Shown piece after piece: positions 8,862 to 58,076 of a stretch of 64,000 bases of DNA; position 1 is the first letter of the stretch, and the number at the start of each line of letters is the position of its first letter. The DNA is from Planctomycetota bacterium (lineage in GTDB: Bacteria; Planctomycetota; UBA8742; UBA2392), in NCBI GenBank assembly GCA_020638635.1, contig JACKIE010000003.1:68362-132361 (forward strand), written 5' to 3'. The notes below the pieces were generated by a model. It was not told where the DNA came from. It saw only the letters and a program-made list of their open reading frames with translations, and ran no database searches. The translations under genes and the position numbers were made by a program.

Positions 8862-8867
8862 GCTGCT

Positions 8868-8899
8868 GGTTCGTGGTTCGTGGTTGGTGTTTCGTGGTG
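8868..8899. repeat. Tandem heptamer array (GGTTCGT)n; left arm of an inverted array pair
   Basis: GGTTCGT GGTTCGT GGTTGGT GTTTCGT GGTGA. It shares the core TTCGTGG/CCACGAA with 9866-9906, in opposite orientation. Confidence 0.8.
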
Positions 8900-9077
8900 A
8901 GTAACTGCCTCCCCAACCATCGTAGTTTCAGCGAAGGCGACTGCCTCCCACCTGCCGCCTGCCTCCTGAACGCCCCACCTTTCCACACAACTGACACCCG
9001 CGATTGTCAGCAAACTTTTGATCGCTGCGCTGGTTCGTGTCGCGCTGAAGGCTACCCTTTGCGGCCGGAGAACAACC

Positions 9078-9815
9078 ATGCGCGCCCTTCACTACAAGAT
9101 GATGATCTGCGGCCAGCCGAGCTTCCGCGCCATTGGCGCAACCCTGCCGCAGTTGACCTACGAGCCCGGCATGCAGCGCGGCTTTTTGCTATCGAAGGAG
9201 AGCAACCAGAACCGCGTGAAAGGCCGCTACATCTACACCAAGCTGGGCAAGCTGGTGCGCATCGACCCGGAATCGCTGGAGCCCACGGAAGAGGCCACGG
9301 AGTCGCTGGCGGAATGCCGCTTCGAGCTGGACCAGCAGAAGGGCCTGGCGATGGTCGAGCAGCGCCGCGGCGAGCTGAACGCGCTGTATGAAGCGCTGGA
9401 TGCCATCCCCGACGCGAACGTGGAGTTCGAGGATTTGAACCTCAACCTGCTGGACCTGATGTTCGAGGTGCAGGGCGCCTACAAGAAGAACGAAGTGAAG
9501 ACCCTGCGCATCCACGACTACCTGGCGCGCGAGAACATGCTGGCCAACGCCAGTTTCAAGATTCTCGACAGGCAGGAGGGAGACAAGATCGCCGAGAAGT
9601 TCAGCGACCAGCTGGACGCCTTCACGCTGACGCTGAAGCTGCCCGACGGCGCCTGCGCGCTCACCGTAACCCGCAAGGGCACCGTAAGGGCCAGCGACGA
9701 CGCGCCCGACGAGTTGCTGCTGCTGATCAAAGACCTGCTGCCCCGCTTCCACGAAGCCGAAGTAGCCACGGCCGAAGTAGTAGACCCCGTAGCCGCCAAA
9801 CGCAAACGCAAGTAG
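9078..9815 (+). CDS. Hypothetical protein (cargo between the inverted TTCGTGG / CCACGAA arrays)
   Basis: Clean coding-like ORF. ATG 9078 is preceded by GGAGAA. I recognised no family. It ends with a basic tail, AAKRKRK. Confidence 0.55.
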   Translation: MRALHYKMMICGQPSFRAIGATLPQLTYEPGMQRGFLLSKESNQNRVKGRYIYTKLGKLVRIDPESLEPTEEATESLAECRFELDQQKGLAMVEQRRGELNALYEALDAIPDANVEFEDLNLNLLDLMFEVQGAYKKNEVKTLRIHDYLARENMLANASFKILDRQEGDKIAEKFSDQLDAFTLTLKLPDGACALTVTRKGTVRASDDAPDELLLLIKDLLPRFHEAEVATAEVVDPVAAKRKRK

Positions 9816-9865: not shown

Positions 9866-9906
9866 GCTCGTACGCAAACCACGGTTGAACCACGAAGAGC
9901 CACGAA
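9866..9906. repeat. Tandem 10-nt array (RRCCACGAAG)n; right arm of the inverted array pair
   Basis: AACCACGGTTG AACCACGAAG AGCCACGAAG GACCACGAAG. This is the reverse-complement core of the 8868-8899 array. Confidence 0.8.
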
Positions 9907-9941
9907 GGACCACGAAGTCAACGTTCAGGATGGCTCCGCAT

Positions 9942-44024: not shown

Positions 44025-44097
44025 GGCATCTCCAGAAGAGAAGCAGCCGGCAGTGTAGCTAAAGAAGCGTGCAAACTCTGCAATGCAAACCAAATCA

Positions 44098-44121
44098 AAC
44101 GGGCGCCCGCAGGCGCCCGTT
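44098..44121 (-). terminator. Hairpin terminator after paralog P2
   Basis: AACGGGCGCC-cgca-GGCGCCCGTT, with a T-rich run following on the minus strand. Nearly identical to the hairpin at 45141-45166. Confidence 0.65.
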
Positions 44122-44141
44122 GTGCGAATTCGGGAGTCAAC

Positions 44142-45032: not shown

Positions 45033-45140
45033 GGTATCTCCTTGGAGGAAAGACTGGTTATGATCGCTCCTCGGAGACGGATTAGACAGCGCCGGCAGGC
45101 CTGTGTCCACAATCTCATCCGGTCCAACAAGCCCAAAACA

Positions 45141-45166
45141 AAACGGGCGCCCGAAGGCGCCCGTTT
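45141..45166 (-). terminator. Hairpin terminator after paralog P1
   Basis: AAACGGGCGCC-cgaa-GGCGCCCGTTT followed on the minus strand by TGTTTTGGG. Confidence 0.65.
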
Positions 45167-45184
45167 GCGTTGAAACAGCATTCA

Positions 45185-51656: not shown

Positions 51657-51896
51657 TCACGCCAGTTTGACGCTGCGAACCTTCCCGCTGTTTTCGTCTT
51701 CAAGGACGAGCTTGCCATGGTCCTTGCTGAAAAGCTGGCGCTTGGCGTCCAGAAGTTCGATCCCGTACACGGTGCCGTCTGGTGCAATATCGATGTTCAG
51801 GTCTTCTGAAACGCTGATCGTCTCCACATCGCGCGACTTGCGATCATGGAGCCGGATGTAGGCAACGTTCAACTCTGCGTCGTAACTCAGTTTCAT
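51657..51896 (-). CDS. DUF2283-family small protein (antitoxin-like)
   Basis: MKLSYDAELNVAYIRL...NIDIAPDGTVYGIELLDA matches the DUF2283 pattern. Confidence 0.7.
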   Translation of the reverse strand: MKLSYDAELNVAYIRLHDRKSRDVETISVSEDLNIDIAPDGTVYGIELLDAKRQLFSKDHGKLVLEDENSGKVRSVKLA

Positions 51897-51903
51897 GGCA
51901 ACC

Positions 51904-52155
51904 TCAGAAGTAGTTTACCAGCACAGTCACTACCCGCCAGCCGCCATCGATCCGTACAGCCAGCAGTTCGACTCGCTTGTTACGGATCTTCCGCCCCCGG
52001 AACGTCGCCTTGTTGGGGAACACACGTCTGAAGCGGGTTCTGCCTTGCCCGACCTTGCGTTTCGAGCCGCCATCAATGCAAAGCTCCACTTCCCGGCGCG
52101 AAACCTTTCGCTCCTGCATGCGCTCTTTCGCGTGGCGAGAGAACTCGAGCTTCAC
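51904..52155 (-). CDS. DUF4258-family small protein (toxin-like)
   Basis: FSRHAKERMQERKVSRREVELCIDGG matches the DUF4258 pattern. GTG 52155 overlaps the desulfurase TGA (GTGA). Confidence 0.65.
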   Translation of the reverse strand: MKLEFSRHAKERMQERKVSRREVELCIDGGSKRKVGQGRTRFRRVFPNKATFRGRKIRNKRVELLAVRIDGGWRVVTVLVNYF

Positions 52156-53336
52156 CCCAGCCCTCGCAGGTGCTTGTAGTTGGCAACGCACAGGTCGGCG
52201 AGACGGTTGGCTTGCTCGGCCGTGATGTCGGGGCCGAACGAAATCCTTATGCAGCCGATTGCGTCCTCCCAGCTCAAACCCATGGCCGCCAGCACGTGGC
52301 TGGGGTCGGTTTCGCCAGGCGCGCAGGCGCTGCCGAGGCCGACACAGTAGCCCTGCTCGCCGAGCTCGATCGCGAGCGCCTGGCCCTCGATCTCGAGAAA
52401 ACTAATGTTGCTGATGTTCGGCAGTCTCGGCGCTCCCCGGCCGTTGATGCGCACGTGCTTGCCCAGGCCCTCGAGGATGCGGGCTTCCATGGCGTCGCGG
52501 ACGGCGGCAACGCGCGGCCAGGTTTTTTCGCGCTGGGCCTCGGCCAGCTCCATGGCCTTCACCATGCCCGCCATGCCGGGCAGGTCCTCGGTGCCGGCGC
52601 GGAAGCCCCATTCCTGGGGGCCGCCCACGATCAGCGGCGCGATGCGGTTGGTCATGTCGTTGTAGAGCAGGCCAATGCCCTTGGGGCCGCCGAACTTGGC
52701 ACTTGCCAGCGTCATCAGGTCGGCGCCGAACTGTTTGGGCCGCAGCTGCACTTTGCCGTAGGCCTGCACTGCGTCGCAGTGGAATTTCGCGCCGGCCGCA
52801 TGGGCGATTTTCGCTACCTCGGCCACGGGCTGGATCACGCCGGTTTCGTTGTTGGCATACATCACGCTGACCAGCGCTGTCTTGTCCCTCACCAACTTGC
52901 GCAGCTCGGCCAGGTCCAGCACGCCGTCGGTGTTTACGGGCGCGTAGTGGACGCGTACGCCTTCGCGCTCAAGGCGCTCGGCCTCCAGCAGCACGGCGTG
53001 GTGCTCGATCTTGCTGACTACCAGCTCGCGCCGCTCAGATCCCGCCTGGGCCAACATGCCGCGCAGAGCCAGCGCGTCGCCCTCGGTGCCGCCGCTGGTG
53101 AAGATGACTTCTCGCGGGTCGGCGCCGATGCAGGCGCCCGCGCGCTTGTGCAGATCCTCGAGGTGGCGCTTGGCGATGTAGGCCAGGGGGTGGTGCGCGC
53201 CCGGGTTGCTGTACTGCTCGAGCGCGTACTTCTCGATCTCGGCCAGAGCCTCGCGGCGGCAAGGCGAGCCGGCGGCGTAATCGCAGTAGACGTACTGCTT
53301 GGTTGTCGGTTGTCGGTTGTCAGTTGTCGGCATCAT
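52152..53336 (-). CDS. Cysteine desulfurase (NifS/IscS-like class V aminotransferase)
   Basis: DYAAGSP, GGTEGDALA, SAKFGGPKGIG (PLP lysine region), GSACAPGE (catalytic Cys loop). The first 11 codons are encoded by the heptamer array. Confidence 0.9.
   Translation of the reverse strand: MMPTTDNRQPTTKQYVYCDYAAGSPCRREALAEIEKYALEQYSNPGAHHPLAYIAKRHLEDLHKRAGACIGADPREVIFTSGGTEGDALALRGMLAQAGSERRELVVSKIEHHAVLLEAERLEREGVRVHYAPVNTDGVLDLAELRKLVRDKTALVSVMYANNETGVIQPVAEVAKIAHAAGAKFHCDAVQAYGKVQLRPKQFGADLMTLASAKFGGPKGIGLLYNDMTNRIAPLIVGGPQEWGFRAGTEDLPGMAGMVKAMELAEAQREKTWPRVAAVRDAMEARILEGLGKHVRINGRGAPRLPNISNISFLEIEGQALAIELGEQGYCVGLGSACAPGETDPSHVLAAMGLSWEDAIGCIRISFGPDITAEQANRLADLCVANYKHLRGLG
53301..53328. repeat. 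Tandem heptamer array (GGTTGTC)3 + AGTTGTC; left arm flanking the four-helix-bundle gene
   Basis: Read directly from the sequence. It is the reverse complement of the array at 53727-53747. Confidence 0.9.
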
Positions 53337-53716
53337 GCCTTCTTCGATCTATCGCGGAGTGAGCGCTTCAGTCCGTTCAGGAGGCGACCTGTCTCGTCCA
53401 ATATCAAGAGTACTGATGCAACTTGTTCTGCGTTGGAATACTTACGGCGCTCTCCAATGAGCAGCTGAGTCCGCACCTCCATTAGTGAACCGTACGCAAT
53501 CGCAAGGAATCGGCCGAAGTCACCTTCATTCTTTCTTCCTTGGCCTTCGGCGATGTTGCTGGGCACTGAGACCGCCGCGCGCCTCACCTGGTTTGTCAGG
53601 CCATATTGTTCCGCTTTTGGCCACGATTCAGTCAGCGTGTAAACCTGATCAACCAGATCCATGGCACGTTGCCACGCGTGAAGGTCTTCAAATCCGTATG
53701 TCTGCGACTTTGTCAT
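53333..53716 (-). CDS. Four-helix-bundle protein (23S rRNA intervening-sequence protein family, PF05635/TIGR02436-like)
   Basis: FEDLHAWQRAMDLVDQVYTLTESWPKAEQYGLTNQVRRAAVSVPSNIAEGQGRKNEGDFGRFLAIAYGSLMEVRTQL is the family signature. I used ATG 53716. Confidence 0.85.
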   Translation of the reverse strand: MTKSQTYGFEDLHAWQRAMDLVDQVYTLTESWPKAEQYGLTNQVRRAAVSVPSNIAEGQGRKNEGDFGRFLAIAYGSLMEVRTQLLIGERRKYSNAEQVASVLLILDETGRLLNGLKRSLRDRSKKA

Positions 53717-53726
53717 CCTCTTTACC

Positions 53727-53747
53727 GACAACTGACAACTGACAACT
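53727..53747. repeat. Tandem heptamer array (GACAACT)3; right arm flanking the four-helix-bundle gene
   Basis: Read directly from the sequence. The last unit runs into the CTA (TAG) stop of the ferredoxin gene at 53746-53748. Confidence 0.9.
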
Positions 53748-54414
53748 AGCCTCTCCGGGGGCGCGGCAGCACCACGATGCTGGGCGGCTTCGTCGGGCAC
53801 GCCTGCACGCACAGGCCGCAGCCGGTGCAGATGCGCGAATCGACTTTCGGCATGGTCGCATCAAAGTCAATGGCGTTGGGATCGAGCGGGCAGGCCTCAT
53901 GGCAGGCGCGGCAGGCTTTGCCGAGATAGCCGAGGCAGGTCTCGGGCTCGACCACCGCGATGCCGATGCGGATCTCCCCCACCGGCGTTTTCTGCAACGC
54001 GCCGGTCGGGCAGACCTCCATGCAGTCACCGCACAGGGTGCAGGGGCCGTGGTTGGGGCGCAAGATCGGCGTGCCCTCGGTGCCGCCGTCCTTGCCGTTG
54101 CTACGGATGATCACCTTCTCAGGGCAGGCCTCGACGCACTTGCTGCACTTGCTGCATACGTCGTTGAAGCGGTCCTCGTGGATCGCGCCCGGCGGCCGAA
54201 AGAACTTGCGGCCGTGCATGTCGGTGAAGTCGCGTGGCAGGGCGGCGTGCTTGGAGACGCCGCCTTCGTAGAGTGTTTTGAACAGGTCCGGGTCCCAGTT
54301 CTGCACGATGCGCGAGCCGGGCACCAGGCGGGTGGCGGTCTTCACGGCGTCGCCGGCCAGGCGGCGCAGCGCCTCGCGTTTTTCAGGGTTCTCGGGTTTG
54401 TCCTGCTCGGCCAT
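53746..54414 (-). CDS. 4Fe-4S ferredoxin-type protein with four cluster motifs (NapG/MauM-like)
   Basis: CSKCSKCVEACP, CTLCGDCMEVCP, CRACHEACP, CTGCGLCVQACP. Confidence 0.8.
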   Translation of the reverse strand: MAEQDKPENPEKREALRRLAGDAVKTATRLVPGSRIVQNWDPDLFKTLYEGGVSKHAALPRDFTDMHGRKFFRPPGAIHEDRFNDVCSKCSKCVEACPEKVIIRSNGKDGGTEGTPILRPNHGPCTLCGDCMEVCPTGALQKTPVGEIRIGIAVVEPETCLGYLGKACRACHEACPLDPNAIDFDATMPKVDSRICTGCGLCVQACPTKPPSIVVLPRPRRG

Positions 54415-54462
54415 GTGTCCAGATTACAGGCCTGCGCAAGAATCCAAAGGGCCGGAAACAGA

Positions 54463-54483
54463 ACCGCGCCCCAAGGGCGCGGT
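54463..54483 (-). terminator. Hairpin after the small ORF
   Basis: ACCGCGCCC-caa-GGGCGCGGT. On the minus strand it is followed by TCTGTTTCC. Confidence 0.5.
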
Positions 54484-54484
54484 G

Positions 54485-54625
54485 TCAGGCAGACTTGCGG
54501 CGTTTCTTGCCCGCACCACCCTTGCCCTTCGTAACACGGAAGAGGTCTGCCGGCTTCAACTCAACGCGCTTGCCATCCACGATGGTCCAATGGCGGGCGA
54601 TTCCGACTTTCTTCTTTTCCGCCAT
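54485..54625 (-). CDS. Possible 46-aa basic small protein, start overlapping the upstream stop (ATGA)
   Basis: My own translation gives MAEKKKVGIARHWTIVDGKRVELKPADLFRVTKGKGGAGKKRRKSA. It is not in the ORF track because it is under 60 aa. Confidence 0.3.
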   Translation of the reverse strand: MAEKKKVGIARHWTIVDGKRVELKPADLFRVTKGKGGAGKKRRKSA

Positions 54626-54990
54626 CACATCTCTCCGAAAAACACCATCCGCTGGTGCAACTCAGTTCCGTCTTCCGTCACTACAACCAGATTGTAGCCG
54701 CCGGGAAGCAGCCCTGCCAGCTTCAGCGGCAGCTCTACGACGCTTTCGCTGCGCCCTGAGGCATGCGCGAGAACCTCGAAGTCCTCTGTCTCGAACTCCA
54801 GATCCTGGGCCTGGGCTTGCAGGCGAAGCCGAAACCGGAACGGCTCTTCGTGGCGCCATTCGATGTAGACGGCCATTGTCTCAGGCAGAAACGCAATGGA
54901 CCGGAACACATCGTGAAGTGAGTAGCGGGTAAACTGCCCCACTTCAAGGCAGGTGATCAGACCGTCAATGTCCGGCAACCTTCCAGCCAT
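54625..54990 (-). CDS. Hypothetical protein (121 aa)
   Basis: Coding-like ORF starting 3 nt after the upstream stop. I recognised no family. Confidence 0.45.
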   Translation of the reverse strand: MAGRLPDIDGLITCLEVGQFTRYSLHDVFRSIAFLPETMAVYIEWRHEEPFRFRLRLQAQAQDLEFETEDFEVLAHASGRSESVVELPLKLAGLLPGGYNLVVVTEDGTELHQRMVFFGEM

Positions 54991-54993
54991 GGG

Positions 54994-55818
54994 TTAGATC
55001 CACTCCGGCTCGGCGTTGCTGGTGATGAAGCCGCGCTCGCGCCCGAGTTTGAGGAATAGCCTTACGGCCTGCATGCCCTTGTCGCCGATGTCGATGGTGT
55101 AGTCGTTGACGTACATGCCCACGAACTTGTCTGCCCTTGACCGGTCAAGGCCACGGCCGTAGGTCAGGGCGTAGTCCAGCGCCTCCTGCCGGTGCTCGAG
55201 CGCGTACCTGATGCTGGCGCTGAAGCACTTGCTGAACTGGGCAATCACCTCGTTGCCCAGGTCGCGGCGCGCGACGTTGCAGCCCAGCGGCAGCGGCAGC
55301 TCGTACTTGGTGTGCCACCACTCGCCAAGGTCAACCACCTTGAACAGCTTGAGGTCGTTGTAGGTCACCTGCCCCTCGTGGATGATCACGCCGGCGTCCA
55401 CGCGGCCATCCAGCACCGCATGCTGCACCTGATTGAAGGGCAGGTTCACGAGCTCGACGTCGTCGTTGTAAAGCCGCATGGCCAGCGTGGCGCTGGTGAG
55501 CGGCCCGGGCACGGCTACCTTTCGCCCCTTGAGCTCGGCGGGGTTCAACGGCTCATTGCTGACCAGGATCGGCCCGTAGCGATCGCCCATGCTGGCGCCC
55601 GCGCGGGTGATCACATACTTGTCGGCGATGTACGGGTAGGCGTGGAAGCTGACGGCCGTGACCTCGAGTTCGTTGCGCCTGGCGCGCTGGTTGAGCGTCT
55701 CGATGTCGCACAGCTCGTGGTTGATGGTGAGCCAGCCGGTGTCGATCTTGTGGTTTGCCAGCGCATGGAACATGAAGGCGTCATCGGCATCCGGCGAGTG
55801 CGCGACGGTGATGGACAT
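54994..55818 (-). CDS. MqnA/MqnD-family protein (menaquinone via futalosine pathway)
   Basis: ITVAHSPDADDAFMFHALANHKID has the periplasmic-binding-protein-like fold typical of the MqnA/MqnD family. I preferred ATG 55818. The track start 55869 would translate the heptamer array (SKIQNPKSK). Confidence 0.65.
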   Translation of the reverse strand: MSITVAHSPDADDAFMFHALANHKIDTGWLTINHELCDIETLNQRARRNELEVTAVSFHAYPYIADKYVITRAGASMGDRYGPILVSNEPLNPAELKGRKVAVPGPLTSATLAMRLYNDDVELVNLPFNQVQHAVLDGRVDAGVIIHEGQVTYNDLKLFKVVDLGEWWHTKYELPLPLGCNVARRDLGNEVIAQFSKCFSASIRYALEHRQEALDYALTYGRGLDRSRADKFVGMYVNDYTIDIGDKGMQAVRLFLKLGRERGFITSNAEPEWI

Positions 55819-55960
55819 TTTGGATTTTGGATTTTGGATTTTGGATTCAGACTGCTGGCCTGCGCTCATGGTTCACTCCGTATCTCGAAACAGTCCCGGC
55901 AGGCCTTGATGCAGGCTTTGCGCGGCAGCGTCAATCCCCAATCCAAAATCCAAAATCCCT
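55818..55960. repeat. About 143-bp empty inverted-array element: (TTTTGGA)4 ... (AATCCAA-type)4
   Basis: TTTTGGA x4 at 55818-55845, an 87-bp spacer, then AATCCCC AATCCAA AATCCAA AATCCCT at 55933-55960. The right end runs into the TAG stop of the HD-GYP gene, and the left end abuts ATG 55818. Confidence 0.85.
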
Positions 55961-58076
55961 AGCGCGCGGCCTTCTGGGCGTCATTCGCGTCGGCCATGCG
56001 CAGCACCTTGAGTTTCAGCTTCTCCCAGATTCTCGTCTCAACGAACAGGTTGACCACCTCCGGGTCGAGGTCGCCTTCGTCCGCCATGGCCTGCAGGATC
56101 TTGATCGCGCGCTCCAGCGGGATGGCCGGCTTGTACGGCCGGTCACTGGCGGTGAGGCTGTCGAACACGTCGGCCACGGCCATGATGCGCGAGCCAAGCG
56201 GAGTCTGCGCCGCAGGCACGCCGTTGGGGTAGCCGCCGCCGCGCATCTTCTCGTGGTGCTGGCCGGCGATTTCGGGCACGTGGGCCAGGTCGTCGGTCCA
56301 GGGAATCTGCTTGAGGAACTTCCATGAGTCGGCAACGTGGCCTTCGATCTCCTTGCGTTCCTCGTTGTTCAGCGTGCCGCGCCTGGTCTGCAGGCTCTCG
56401 TATTCGTCCTTGCTGAGCAGGGGCAGGATCAGGTCGCCGATGCGGCGCGGATTCTCGAAGATGTCCTTCAGCCGCTTCTCGCCGTCCTCTGACAGGAACA
56501 CCGGCTTTGTGTGGGTGTGGATGAACGCCAGGTCGTCATCCAACGTCTTGATCTGCTGCTCCAGCTCGTCGCGGATGGCCTGCAGGTATTCGTCAGTAGC
56601 GGTGCCTTCGGCGTAAAGCTGCGCCTGGCGGCGCATCGCGTCCAGCTGCAGCTCGCGGCGGATGATCTCGCCCCGGAAGTCTATGGCCTGCGCCTGCGCC
56701 GGGTACAGCTTCTCGGCCTTGGTCAGCACATGCTCGCGCACGCCGATCTTGCCGAAGTCGTGCAGCAGGCCGGCGTAGTGCAGCTCGACCATCTCCGCGT
56801 CGCTGAACATTTCGTTCGCGAAGGGGCCTTCCTTGGCCCTATTGACCTCATCGGCGATGGCCATGGTCAGGCGGTCTACCCGGCCGGAATGGCCGGCCGT
56901 GGCGGGGTCGCGCTGTTCCACGGCCTGCACGCAGGCGATCACGAAACGTTCGAACAGGTTGGTGATGGCGTCCATCAACCGCACGTTTTCGATGGCAACG
57001 CCGGCCTGGCTGCCGAGGCTGGTGGCCAACTCCACGTCTTCGTCGGTGAAGGGGATGATGTTTCCGGTGGGATCTCCCTTGAGATCAAGACGGTTGAGCG
57101 GGTTGCGCTTCTTGTTGATCAACTGCACGACGCCCACGACTTCGTCACTGGTGTTTTTGAGCGGCACGGTCAGCATGCTGCAGGTACGGTATCCGTACTT
57201 TTCGTCGATGTACTTGTTGAATTTATAGGGTGCCTCAGGGGGGAGCTTGTACACGTCGGACAGCGCGACAATCTTGCCGGTGATTGCTGCGTAGCCCGCG
57301 ATGCTCTCCAGGTTCGCAGGGAACACGATTTCCTCGAACGGAATCTCGCAGCTGTCGTTCTGGGCCGCGGCGAAGCGCAGGCTGAAAACCTGGCTGGTCA
57401 GCGCAGCGCGCTTGACCGCCACGGCGCGCGTGCGGCGCTCGGCACGACCCAGCACTTTGCGCCCGCTGAAGCCGGCGCCCTTGCCGCTTTCGATGATGTA
57501 AATGCTTCCGGCGTCCGCATCCATGATGTTGCGGGCCTCAGTCAGCACGACTTCGAGCAGATCGTGCAGCACGCGGATGTCGGAAAGCGCCGTGCCAATG
57601 CGGTTGAGACGCGCCAGCTTGTCGCGTGACGCGGTACTGGAACCTTCACTGAACGCGCGCGAGCGCAGCCATGCAAGCTCGCGCGCGCGCGGGATGAAAC
57701 GATCAAACGCAGCCTGCTTGATGGGCAGGCCGAAGTGGTCGTCGTAAACCGGGTCGTCGATGCGCTGCTCTCCGAAGGTGGCCAGCACGGTGGACGGCGC
57801 GCGGTCCTCGATCAACTGCTGGCTCAAGGGTGCGGCCGCGGAATCGACCAGCAGAACGGCACCGTTGCGGAGGGTGAAGTGGCCGGTCTGGTCGGGCGCC
57901 GCAACCTCGATGATCTGGTCCCGCGACTCGCTGAACGCGGGCGACGCGGTCAGGGCAGCCATCACCGCTCGGCGACGGACTTCGTCCTGGCCGTACACGA
58001 TGAAGGTCAGCGTCTGCTTGCTGTCGGTGATCGCGATGCGTGTGTACAACCGTGACGTCGCGGAGCGCATGGGCAA
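55959..58076 (-). CDS. HD-GYP domain phosphodiesterase with a GAF domain
   Basis: HDFGKIGV and HHEKMRGGGYPNG (HD-GYP). A GAF-like central region and a degenerate receiver-like N-terminus. Confidence 0.85.
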   Translation of the reverse strand: MPMRSATSRLYTRIAITDSKQTLTFIVYGQDEVRRRAVMAALTASPAFSESRDQIIEVAAPDQTGHFTLRNGAVLLVDSAAAPLSQQLIEDRAPSTVLATFGEQRIDDPVYDDHFGLPIKQAAFDRFIPRARELAWLRSRAFSEGSSTASRDKLARLNRIGTALSDIRVLHDLLEVVLTEARNIMDADAGSIYIIESGKGAGFSGRKVLGRAERRTRAVAVKRAALTSQVFSLRFAAAQNDSCEIPFEEIVFPANLESIAGYAAITGKIVALSDVYKLPPEAPYKFNKYIDEKYGYRTCSMLTVPLKNTSDEVVGVVQLINKKRNPLNRLDLKGDPTGNIIPFTDEDVELATSLGSQAGVAIENVRLMDAITNLFERFVIACVQAVEQRDPATAGHSGRVDRLTMAIADEVNRAKEGPFANEMFSDAEMVELHYAGLLHDFGKIGVREHVLTKAEKLYPAQAQAIDFRGEIIRRELQLDAMRRQAQLYAEGTATDEYLQAIRDELEQQIKTLDDDLAFIHTHTKPVFLSEDGEKRLKDIFENPRRIGDLILPLLSKDEYESLQTRRGTLNNEERKEIEGHVADSWKFLKQIPWTDDLAHVPEIAGQHHEKMRGGGYPNGVPAAQTPLGSRIMAVADVFDSLTASDRPYKPAIPLERAIKILQAMADEGDLDPEVVNLFVETRIWEKLKLKVLRMADANDAQKAAR

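Follow-up and report, generated by a model that had tools for sequence, protein, structure and literature searches.

The window analysed here is a 64,000-nt stretch of a Planctomycetota genome (contig JACKIE010000003.1, positions 68,362 to 132,361), and the element under study is a short segment of an operon in which the gene of a four-helix-bundle (4HB) protein lies between a ferredoxin gene and the gene of a cysteine desulfurase, NifS. All three genes are encoded on the minus strand. The 4HB gene is bracketed by tandem heptamer arrays, (GGTTGTC)3-AGTTGTC at 53301-53328 and (GACAACT)3 at 53727-53747, which are inverted with respect to each other and bound a segment of 447 bp. A preliminary description of the sequence had reported these arrays and a single 127-aa gene between them. 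Both observations hold, the former on a direct sequence check and with two repeat finders, the latter as the open reading frame (ORF) 53333-53716(-). Each array was recovered independently by Tandem Repeats Finder, and the inverted-repeat finder paired 53309-53330 with 53725-53746 as arms of 22 nt that are 95% complementary. The pattern GACAACYGACAAC occurs five times in the window, every time within the two cassette arrays, while 0.10 occurrences are expected in shuffled sequence and none of 100 shuffles reached five; the inverted arrays are far beyond chance. The whole window holds only six period-7 arrays. Our analysis indicates, with a probability of about 70%, that the segment is a cassette of the intervening-sequence (IVS) type known from 23S rRNA, i.e., a PF05635 gene with inverted 7-nt arrays as its ends, residing here in a protein-coding operon.

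The gene boundaries around the cassette agree with the preliminary description, according to which the arrays form the ferredoxin stop and the desulfurase N-terminus and the 4HB stop overlaps the desulfurase start (Table 1). The TAG of the ferredoxin gene (53746-53748) comes from the first unit of the 5' arm and shares the two final bases of the array, and the TGA of the 4HB gene and the NifS start overlap in GCATGATGCC. The NifS N-terminus reads MMPTTDNRQPTTKQY, of which the array encodes codons 3-12. This array must be translated, because the Pfam domain begins at residue 16 and no alternative in-frame NifS start lies ahead of it. Inside the cassette and between the genes no promoter or terminator signal exceeded the shuffled expectation, which is consistent with co-transcription and is no proof of it. 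No Rfam match at E ≤ 1 was obtained in positions 52000-57000 of the window, and no rRNA lies nearby.

Table 1. Features of the array-bounded cassette, its host genes and the second array pair (window coordinates)
Feature	Position	Strand	Basis
5' arm (on the transcript), C-TAG-TTGTC AGTTGTC AGTTGTC GG	53725..53749	-	sequence, Tandem Repeats Finder, inverted-repeat finder
Leader TAAAGAGG, with Shine-Dalgarno-like AGAGG directly 5' of the 4HB ATG	53717..53724	-	sequence; role inferred
Four-helix-bundle (4HB) gene, 127 aa, PF05635 / TIGR02436	53333..53716	-	profile matches
ATGATG, cassette-supplied NifS start, overlapping the 4HB TGA stop	53331..53336	-	sequence
3' arm CC GACAACT (GACAACC)3, translated as NifS residues 3-12 PTTDNRQPTT	53301..53330	-	sequence and repeat finders
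Upstream host gene, NapG/NapF-like 4Fe-4S ferredoxin	53746..54414	-	profile matches
Downstream host gene, NifS/IscS-like class-V aminotransferase (cysteine desulfurase)	52152..53336	-	profile matches
Second pair, 5' arm, GGATTTT-type heptamers	55933..55958	-	repeat finders, alignment
Second pair, 3' arm (AATCCAA)n, in the first codons of the MqnD-like gene (SKIQNPKSK)	55817..55847	-	repeat finders, alignment

The protein between the arrays belongs to the 23S rRNA IVS-protein family, as had been supposed, with PF05635 (E=6.5e-38, 129.6 bits against a cutoff of 33.8) and TIGR02436 (E=6.7e-36, 122.8 bits against a cutoff of 24) both matching above their curated cutoffs. The family is large, with at least 7,992 matches at E ≤ 0.001; the exact-sequence lookup returned no record for the window protein, and PADLOC matched neither this protein nor the neighbouring small ORFs. 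The closest solved structure is that of XCC0516 (2GSC, E=1.3e-27), which has been reported as a toroidal homopentamer (PMC4990558). The invariant positions include Q43, R45, S50, S53, N54, E57 and G58, and a surface motif SxPSNIAEGxGR is strongly conserved. The window protein carries the motif GxxRxxxSxxxNxxE noted for PF05635 proteins (PMC3936711) and is kin to a solved four-helix bundle, the pentameric state being taken from the literature. Its charge is modest, with 19 K+R against 15 D+E.

Relatives of the locus were obtained via P0003, a protein 80% identical to the window 4HB protein, and by a metagenome scan with NifS. P0003 sits in a syntenic locus, L001, with the order HD-GYP, MqnD, two small ORFs, ferredoxin, 4HB, NifS, DUF4258, DUF2283 and EPSP synthase, and its gene has the same heptamer unit as in the window on both sides. 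The cassette is also present in L085 from the metagenome scan (NifS 96% identical), and among the three carriers, i.e., the window, L085 and L001, the NifS proteins are 95-96% identical, about 95% mutually. Two further relatives are without the cassette: in L086 (NifS 86% identical) the ferredoxin and NifS genes overlap in GTGA and NifS starts with MTVKEYIYCDY, and in L087 (NifS 67% identical) a 50-nt spacer is followed by NifS with MPNKGYVYCDY. No heptamer array is found at these empty ferredoxin-NifS junctions, and from the GTG or ATG start of NifS it is three or four codons to the conserved Y[IV]YCDY. The desulfurases of L086 and L087 are thus free of PTTDNRQPTT, as the preliminary description would have it, and we attribute this extension to the array because the cassette-free orthologues start differently and without arrays. 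Relative to related sequences, the 447-bp segment is a genuine insertion. Given the NifS identity of about 95% among the three carriers, the parsimonious explanation is a single insertion in an ancestor that they share, with the arrays arriving together with the gene. Comparison with the empty site revealed no direct repeat at the cassette junctions. The notion that the cassette is, or has been, mobile gains support from the filled and empty sites and from the discordant history of the ORF.

The operon MqnD-ferredoxin-NifS-EPSP synthase is itself conserved, and it is compact in L087. In the window, small lineage-specific inserts occupy three of its junctions (51657-52191, 53301-53749 and 54625-54990), the inserts being ORF121, the 4HB cassette and a DUF4258/DUF2283 pair. 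With L001 the ORF121 region shares 98% identity, with L085 only 73%.

Array copy number varies where coding permits. The untranslated 5' arm has two or three units among related contigs that encode an identical 4HB protein, and the translated 3' arm has four units in all relatives. A perfectly complementary 3' arm for (AGTTGTC)n would read MMPTTDN and then meet an in-frame TGA at NifS codon 8; the T-to-C variant in units 2-4 of the 3' arm keeps NifS open at the cost of A.C mismatches. The flanks of the window, L085 and L001 are about equally distant (92-93% nucleotide identity), whereas the 4HB ORF is 99.0% identical to that of L085 (flanks 93%, P=5e-7) and 72.5% identical to that of L001 (flanks 92-93%, P=1e-24), and the identity breaks coincide with the inner array edges. 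Synonymous sites of the 4HB ORF are saturated, with a synonymous divergence (dS) of about 0.26 in the flanks. GC content at third codon positions is 0.57 in the 4HB ORF against 0.86-0.89 in the neighbouring host genes, and across 84 loci the 4HB gene lies 5-9 GC points under its flanks. The pattern fits an exchange of the ORF between the arrays independently of the flanks, either as cassette exchange or as horizontal replacement.

The expectation that other 4HB genes would also be flanked by inverted short-period arrays was confirmed. We fetched 80 loci with PF05635 genes from GTDB species representatives (Planctomycetota, Acidobacteriota, Bacteroidota, Proteobacteria, Clostridia, Chloroflexota, candidate phyla radiation (CPR) and others) and scored 84 PF05635 genes by the best ungapped inverted repeat between the two gene flanks, and an equal span placed randomly in those loci served as the control (n=435). 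The median score was 16, compared with a control median of 8 and a control 99th percentile of 12.7. With 200-nt flanks, a score of at least 13 was reached by 55 of the 84 genes, 51 with period 7 and four with period 8, while direct repeats of equal strength occurred at only four of the 84. The surveyed loci (809 kb, window included) contain 117 period-7 arrays, while periods 4-6 and 8-12 are represented by no more than seven arrays each. Of the 117, 63 are located no farther than 200 nt from a 4HB gene end; this zone makes up 8.7% of the sequence, and about 10 arrays would be expected in it. Away from 4HB genes the arrays have a density of 7.3 per 100 kb, compared with 1.35 in 370 kb of NifS-selected control loci, which hold five arrays, one of them adjoining a 4HB gene. 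The layout was replicated in IMG/VR viral contigs (7/12 4HB genes). The array-bounded layout is the usual one for PF05635 genes across phyla.

At the surveyed genes the 3' arm begins at a median of 8 nt past the stop and the 5' arm ends at a median of 35 nt ahead of the start, arms usually being three to five units long. Neighbouring genes are mostly co-directional and close, and in roughly every second scorable case the upstream stop codon adjoins or overlaps the 5' array. Arrays that do not adjoin a 4HB gene often come in pairs, too, 34 of 54 having an inverted partner within 3 kb, often with 13-200 nt enclosed. No rRNA was found at the twelve loci whose 4HB gene sat in ORF-poor stretches. 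Start codons are distributed asymmetrically, being absent from 48/55 3' arms versus 21/55 5' arms. The idea that the 5' arm provides stops in all three frames and the 3' arm is kept open was rejected, the stop content being alike in both arms. The GT-rich arm, which appeared as the 5' arm in 30 loci versus 2, was likewise rejected as a signal of orientation relative to the gene, because an inverted repeat reads alike on both strands; its pattern is the convergent arrangement noted in Xanthomonas.

Some surveyed and control loci have arrays of a peculiar kind. In L057 (1-10354, Desulfobacterales), arrays of the AAAGTTC, GTTTTCT and GGTTTTC unit families and their complements stand at almost every intergenic gap, including the flanks of two 4HB paralogues. 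In L006 (2557-3458, Planctomycetota), GGACGGT/ACCGTCC arrays flank the 4HB gene on each side with arms of roughly 170-230 nt or more, some 25-35 units, by far the longest seen. Two of the five control arrays (L163 2050-2083 and L164 1705-1738) share the unit GTCGTTA/GTCATTG, and that of L163 adjoins a weak 4HB match at 2146-2481.

The units are related beyond their length. After rotation into register, with the arm lying 5' on either strand used for the consensus, they follow Y-A-G-T-N-N-Y, with G in 51/51, A in 39 and T in 36; the window unit in this register is CAGTTGT. The core carries 4.76 bits of information, against 3.41±0.19 for random heptamers of equal composition. Orthologous Acidobacteria loci vary at the first position of the unit and their two arms stay complementary, (A/G/T)AGTACC pairing with GGTACT(T/C/A), i.e., the arms covary. 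The variable positions are more alike where the 4HB proteins are more alike, although the genomic contexts differ (permutation P=0.0002), and because units correlate with proteins across contexts we suppose that they travel with the gene and are not copied from the target. Copying of the unit from the target site was considered, as the last 3' unit plus AAG agrees with the ancestral GACGGTCAAG of L086 in 8/10 bases, and was rejected as a single case.

The preliminary description held that the arms could pair and loop out the 4HB ORF. The minimum free energy and centroid folds of the 471-nt transcript bear this out, as both predict an array stem of about 22 bp that closes the whole 4HB ORF, with a predicted arm duplex of -37.9 kcal/mol. 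As the long ORF contributes the dominant share of the folding energy, the overall fold z-score of this transcript is only -1.7. The 3' arm constitutes NifS codons 3-12, with the NifS AUG on its loop side. A processing site placed simply between the cistrons, as had also been proposed, does not suit this geometry: a cut in the stem would detach the NifS start codon from the NifS body.

The IVSs of 23S rRNA in Leptospira, Coxiella and Brucella provide the closest comparison. There, too, a PF05635/S23p ORF is looped out by terminal inverted repeats, and the IVS size of 428-444 nt is similar to the 447 nt of the window cassette. The S23p ORF of the Coxiella 23S IVS is preceded by tandem GACAGAT heptamers, whose number varies among strains and which belong to a 28-bp terminal stem cut by RNase III; the Coxiella protein is probably not made, and the heptamers persist nonetheless (PMC4990558). 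The likeness to IVSs drawn in the preliminary description is therefore closer than an ORF between inverted repeats, as the Coxiella stem has tandem heptamers as well and is RNase III-cut. Because the Coxiella IVS shares this anatomy, we regard the window element as a probable IVS-type cassette in an mRNA; it has terminal inverted repeats able to close the ORF and is an insertion relative to its relatives. It differs in its host transcript, which is an mRNA and not an rRNA, and in its location, between protein-coding genes and not in helix 25 or helix 45 of 23S rRNA. Moreover, one array overlaps the stop codon of the upstream gene, the other encodes the N-terminus of the downstream gene, and excision would damage this downstream cistron.

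The comparisons show that the cassette entered the overlapping stop/start junction of the ferredoxin-NifS pair in an ancestor of a small Planctomycetota clade. It brought both arrays along and now supplies the ferredoxin stop, the NifS start and ten NifS codons encoded by the array. We hypothesize that on the transcript the two arms pair into the stem of ~22 bp and thereby loop out the 4HB ORF, after the manner of the RNase III-cut rRNA IVSs. Ribosomes terminating at the ferredoxin TAG and at the 4HB TGA would melt both arms, and the translation of NifS could be coupled to that of the 4HB gene through the ATGATG/TGA overlap. A persisting stem would then be a negative signal, upon which the transcript would be cut and NifS expression lost. 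The arrays may be the ends via which the cassette moves or has its content replaced.

Other known elements share single traits with the cassette. The STRR, Xanthomonas GGGAATC and Beggiatoaceae TAACTGA (PMC4679880) families have, like the window arrays, a period of 7 and variable copy number, are intergenic and transcribed, and abut starts and stops; the window arrays, as tandem 7-nt units that abut a start and a stop and vary in copies, can be counted among such heptamer families. In Xanthomonas, 186 GGGAATC arrays with 70 convergent (inverted) pairs have been described, and one array of the supplement, listed without comment, extends over the start of XCC0516, a neighbour of bccP (PMC4692102). 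TAACTGA and, by our own reading, CCCCAGT of STRR1 fit the YAGTNNY/RNNACTR core. The reports on these families describe one unit per genome and no link to PF05635, whereas here locus-specific units bracket a gene. REP/REPIN elements with RAYT are similar in their hairpin-forming intergenic repeats, in a small gene between inverted copies and in many gene-less copies. However, REP is a single palindrome with one conserved sequence per genome and RAYT is an HUH transposase, while the arms described here consist of tandem units particular to each locus and no catalytic fold is known for the protein, and the identity with REP/RAYT was rejected on these grounds. Integron cassettes resemble the element as promoterless, co-directional single genes with imperfect inverted repeats and a 7-nt core, but they have one 3' attC with GTTRRRY cores and need IntI. 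Here, arrays are on both sides, the core is YAGTNNY, the site is inside a housekeeping operon and no integrase is among the neighbours; an integron cassette was thus rejected, the attC comparison being made by inspection. A miniature inverted-repeat transposable element or transposon was also rejected, as the units differ between loci and no direct repeat is present at the junctions versus the empty site.

A 4HB gene wedged between operon genes has been seen in the cas operon of Pleurocapsa, where a PF05635 gene lies between cmr3 and cmr2; the report reads it as a functional partner of CRISPR-Cas and mentions no flanking repeats (PMC3936711). PF05635 genes also occur at scattered insertion sites in the 16S and 23S rRNA genes of CPR bacteria (bioRxiv 2024.02.27.582315). 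The preliminary description considered the architecture undescribed, and this stands in part. Heptamers had been reported from a single IVS, inverted heptamer pairs from Xanthomonas and 4HB genes from cas operons, each separately, while a search of full-text literature with incomplete coverage found no paper linking PF05635 to heptamer arrays in general. The family-wide link of PF05635 genes with inverted heptamer arrays is apparently unreported.

Several observations weigh against an IVS-type cassette. No target-site duplication, transposase or recombinase is visible at the cassette. Pairing of the arms in the transcript is a prediction from folding, and RNase III cleavage at the window stem is proposed by likeness to Coxiella. 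A simple and benign intercistronic processing is unlikely, because a stem cut separates the NifS AUG from the NifS body. The 7-nt periodicity and the conserved YAGT core both go beyond what a plain stem explains. Host GC content may confound the correlation between units and proteins, and general mosaic recombination in the population could account for the discordant ORF history, the neighbouring segment 54415-54993 being mosaic as well. Of the surveyed genes, 29/84 fell under the threshold, several of them with vestigial heptamers. A further difficulty arises from a second array pair in the window (55817-55958), in which (GGATTTT)n and (AATCCAA)n enclose 84 nt without an ORF (fold z-score -3.5). 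Its 5' arm separates the last sense codon of the HD-GYP/GAF gene from the ancestral TGA, and the pair adds SKIQNPKSK to the N-terminus of MqnD. Alignment with L001 shows two separate insertions, at the HD-GYP gene end and in the first MqnD codons, and the interior is homologous to the ancestral HD-GYP-MqnD spacer (P<0.0005). The pair is absent from L001 and L087, and right at the border of L085 the 3' end of the downstream array can be recognised. It appears from these alignments to have arisen as two array insertions around a cargo-less ancestral spacer, and the arrays are therefore not simply carried in as the ends of 4HB cassettes. None of the models considered accounts for a matched pair at two sites without cargo, nor for the preference for period 7 with a YAGT core.

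The arrays could instead act in DNA, as hairpin or cruciform ends at which the cassette is inserted, excised or exchanged through a host enzyme, an unknown enzyme or inter-array recombination. In the mRNA, RNA pairing would then be incidental; only in rRNA would it be of use, by allowing RNase III to take out the insert. The filled and empty sites with arrays arriving together with the gene, the two ORF alleles between identical arrays with breaks at the array edges, and the units that travel with the protein into different contexts all speak for such a role, as do the scattered rRNA sites of PF05635 in CPR (bioRxiv 2024.02.27.582315) and its presence in cas operons (PMC3936711) and the harm to NifS that an RNA cut in the ferredoxin-NifS operon would cause. 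We consider it possible, if doubtful, as no recombinase, nuclease domain or target-site duplication was found, an ORF-less pair around an ancestral spacer is hard to obtain by insertion of a single element, and the arrays vary among loci, whereas transposon families have conserved ends. A different role, which we regard as unlikely, is that the arrays are primarily binding sites for a pentameric ring of the 4HB protein that reads the YAGU/YAGT core at 7-nt spacing. Protein bound to the single-stranded 5' arm would compete with the stem and control the fate of the transcript, and ORF-less arrays at other genomic sites could be its targets in trans. The 4HB protein is likened here to the TRAP ring, which reads spaced (G/U)AG triplets. 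A conserved core, three variable positions and a fixed spacing look like a protein site and are not needed by a plain stem, and arms of three to five units would suit a ring such as the toroidal homopentamer reported for XCC0516 (PMC4990558), whose gene itself abuts a GGGAATC array. The conserved surface motif SxPSNIAEGxGR with GxxRxxxSxxxNxxE (PMC3936711), the genome-wide enrichment of arrays near 4HB-bearing loci and the covariation of units with the protein point the same way. Yet the binding is a prediction and the TRAP parallel an analogy, the net charge of the protein is modest, the strict complementarity and covariation of the arms exceed what binding to one arm explains, and the Coxiella heptamers persist where the protein is probably not made (PMC4990558).

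It is improbable that the arrays are just slippage-prone simple repeats selected into intercistronic hairpins, in which unit duplication in both arms would lengthen a stem fastest and adjacency to 4HB genes would arise only from a common preference for tight intergenic gaps. The over-representation of heptamers in bacteria has been attributed to polymerase slippage in work cited in PMC4692102, copy number is polymorphic, ORF-less pairs with short loops are common, and the 70 inverted GGGAATC pairs of Xanthomonas mostly do not adjoin 4HB genes (PMC4692102). Such an origin would leave unexplained the 63/117 arrays close to 4HB gene ends versus about 10 expected, the 5-fold lower number of arrays in control loci, the core common across phyla, the units that track the protein and the array-free empty orthologous junctions. 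Finally, the reading of the 4HB gene as Avd, the accessory protein of a diversity-generating retroelement, is hardly credible and was rejected. The matches to bAvd PF22296 (27.2 bits) and to the NCBIfam Avd model (28.1 bits) are weak and remain under the cutoffs of 40 and 80 bits, no reverse-transcriptase domain lies within about 3 kb on either side in the window and the Pfam-annotated syntenic loci, and no pair of template and variable repeats was found.

Beyond the IVS-type cassette itself, a wider and distinctly speculative view is that PF05635 genes and YAGTNNY arrays form one widespread, unrecognised system across bacterial phyla, in which the pentameric ring might recognise the arrays or help to generate them. 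A gene with its two arrays would be the autonomous form, ORF-less pairs, STRR, GGGAATC and TAACTGA would be non-autonomous or trans-acted, and the rRNA IVS would be a special case. Two puzzles, the role of the ORFs in 23S IVSs and the over-representation of 7-nt tandem repeats, may then be one. If true, a very abundant "hypothetical" family would gain a candidate nucleic-acid partner, and annotators could identify the cassettes as inserts by which the termini of adjacent genes are rewritten, in this case with ten additional residues on a cysteine desulfurase. "Functional associations" of PF05635, e.g., with cas operons, may be mere landing sites, and a gene-sized insert would be tolerated in tight operons by means of its own stop, start and translational coupling.

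Other repeats in the window deserve brief mention. A TGGTTCG array of period 7 (8863-8900) and a CCACGAA-type array of period 10 (9876-9915) bracket ORF 9078-9815(+), which encodes 245 aa and has no Pfam, NCBIfam or PADLOC match. Their duplex reaches -37.8 kcal/mol with bulges, the ungapped inverted-repeat score being only 10, and the ORF may be a different cargo gene between degenerate arrays. At the window start (87-293), a GAAGAG-type repeat with periods of 6, 15 and 24 presumably codes for a low-complexity stretch of acidic character. A GC-rich hairpin, AACGGGCGCC...GGCGCCCGTT, has two copies at 44091-44124 and 45139-45172, which are about 1 kb apart and mutually inverted.

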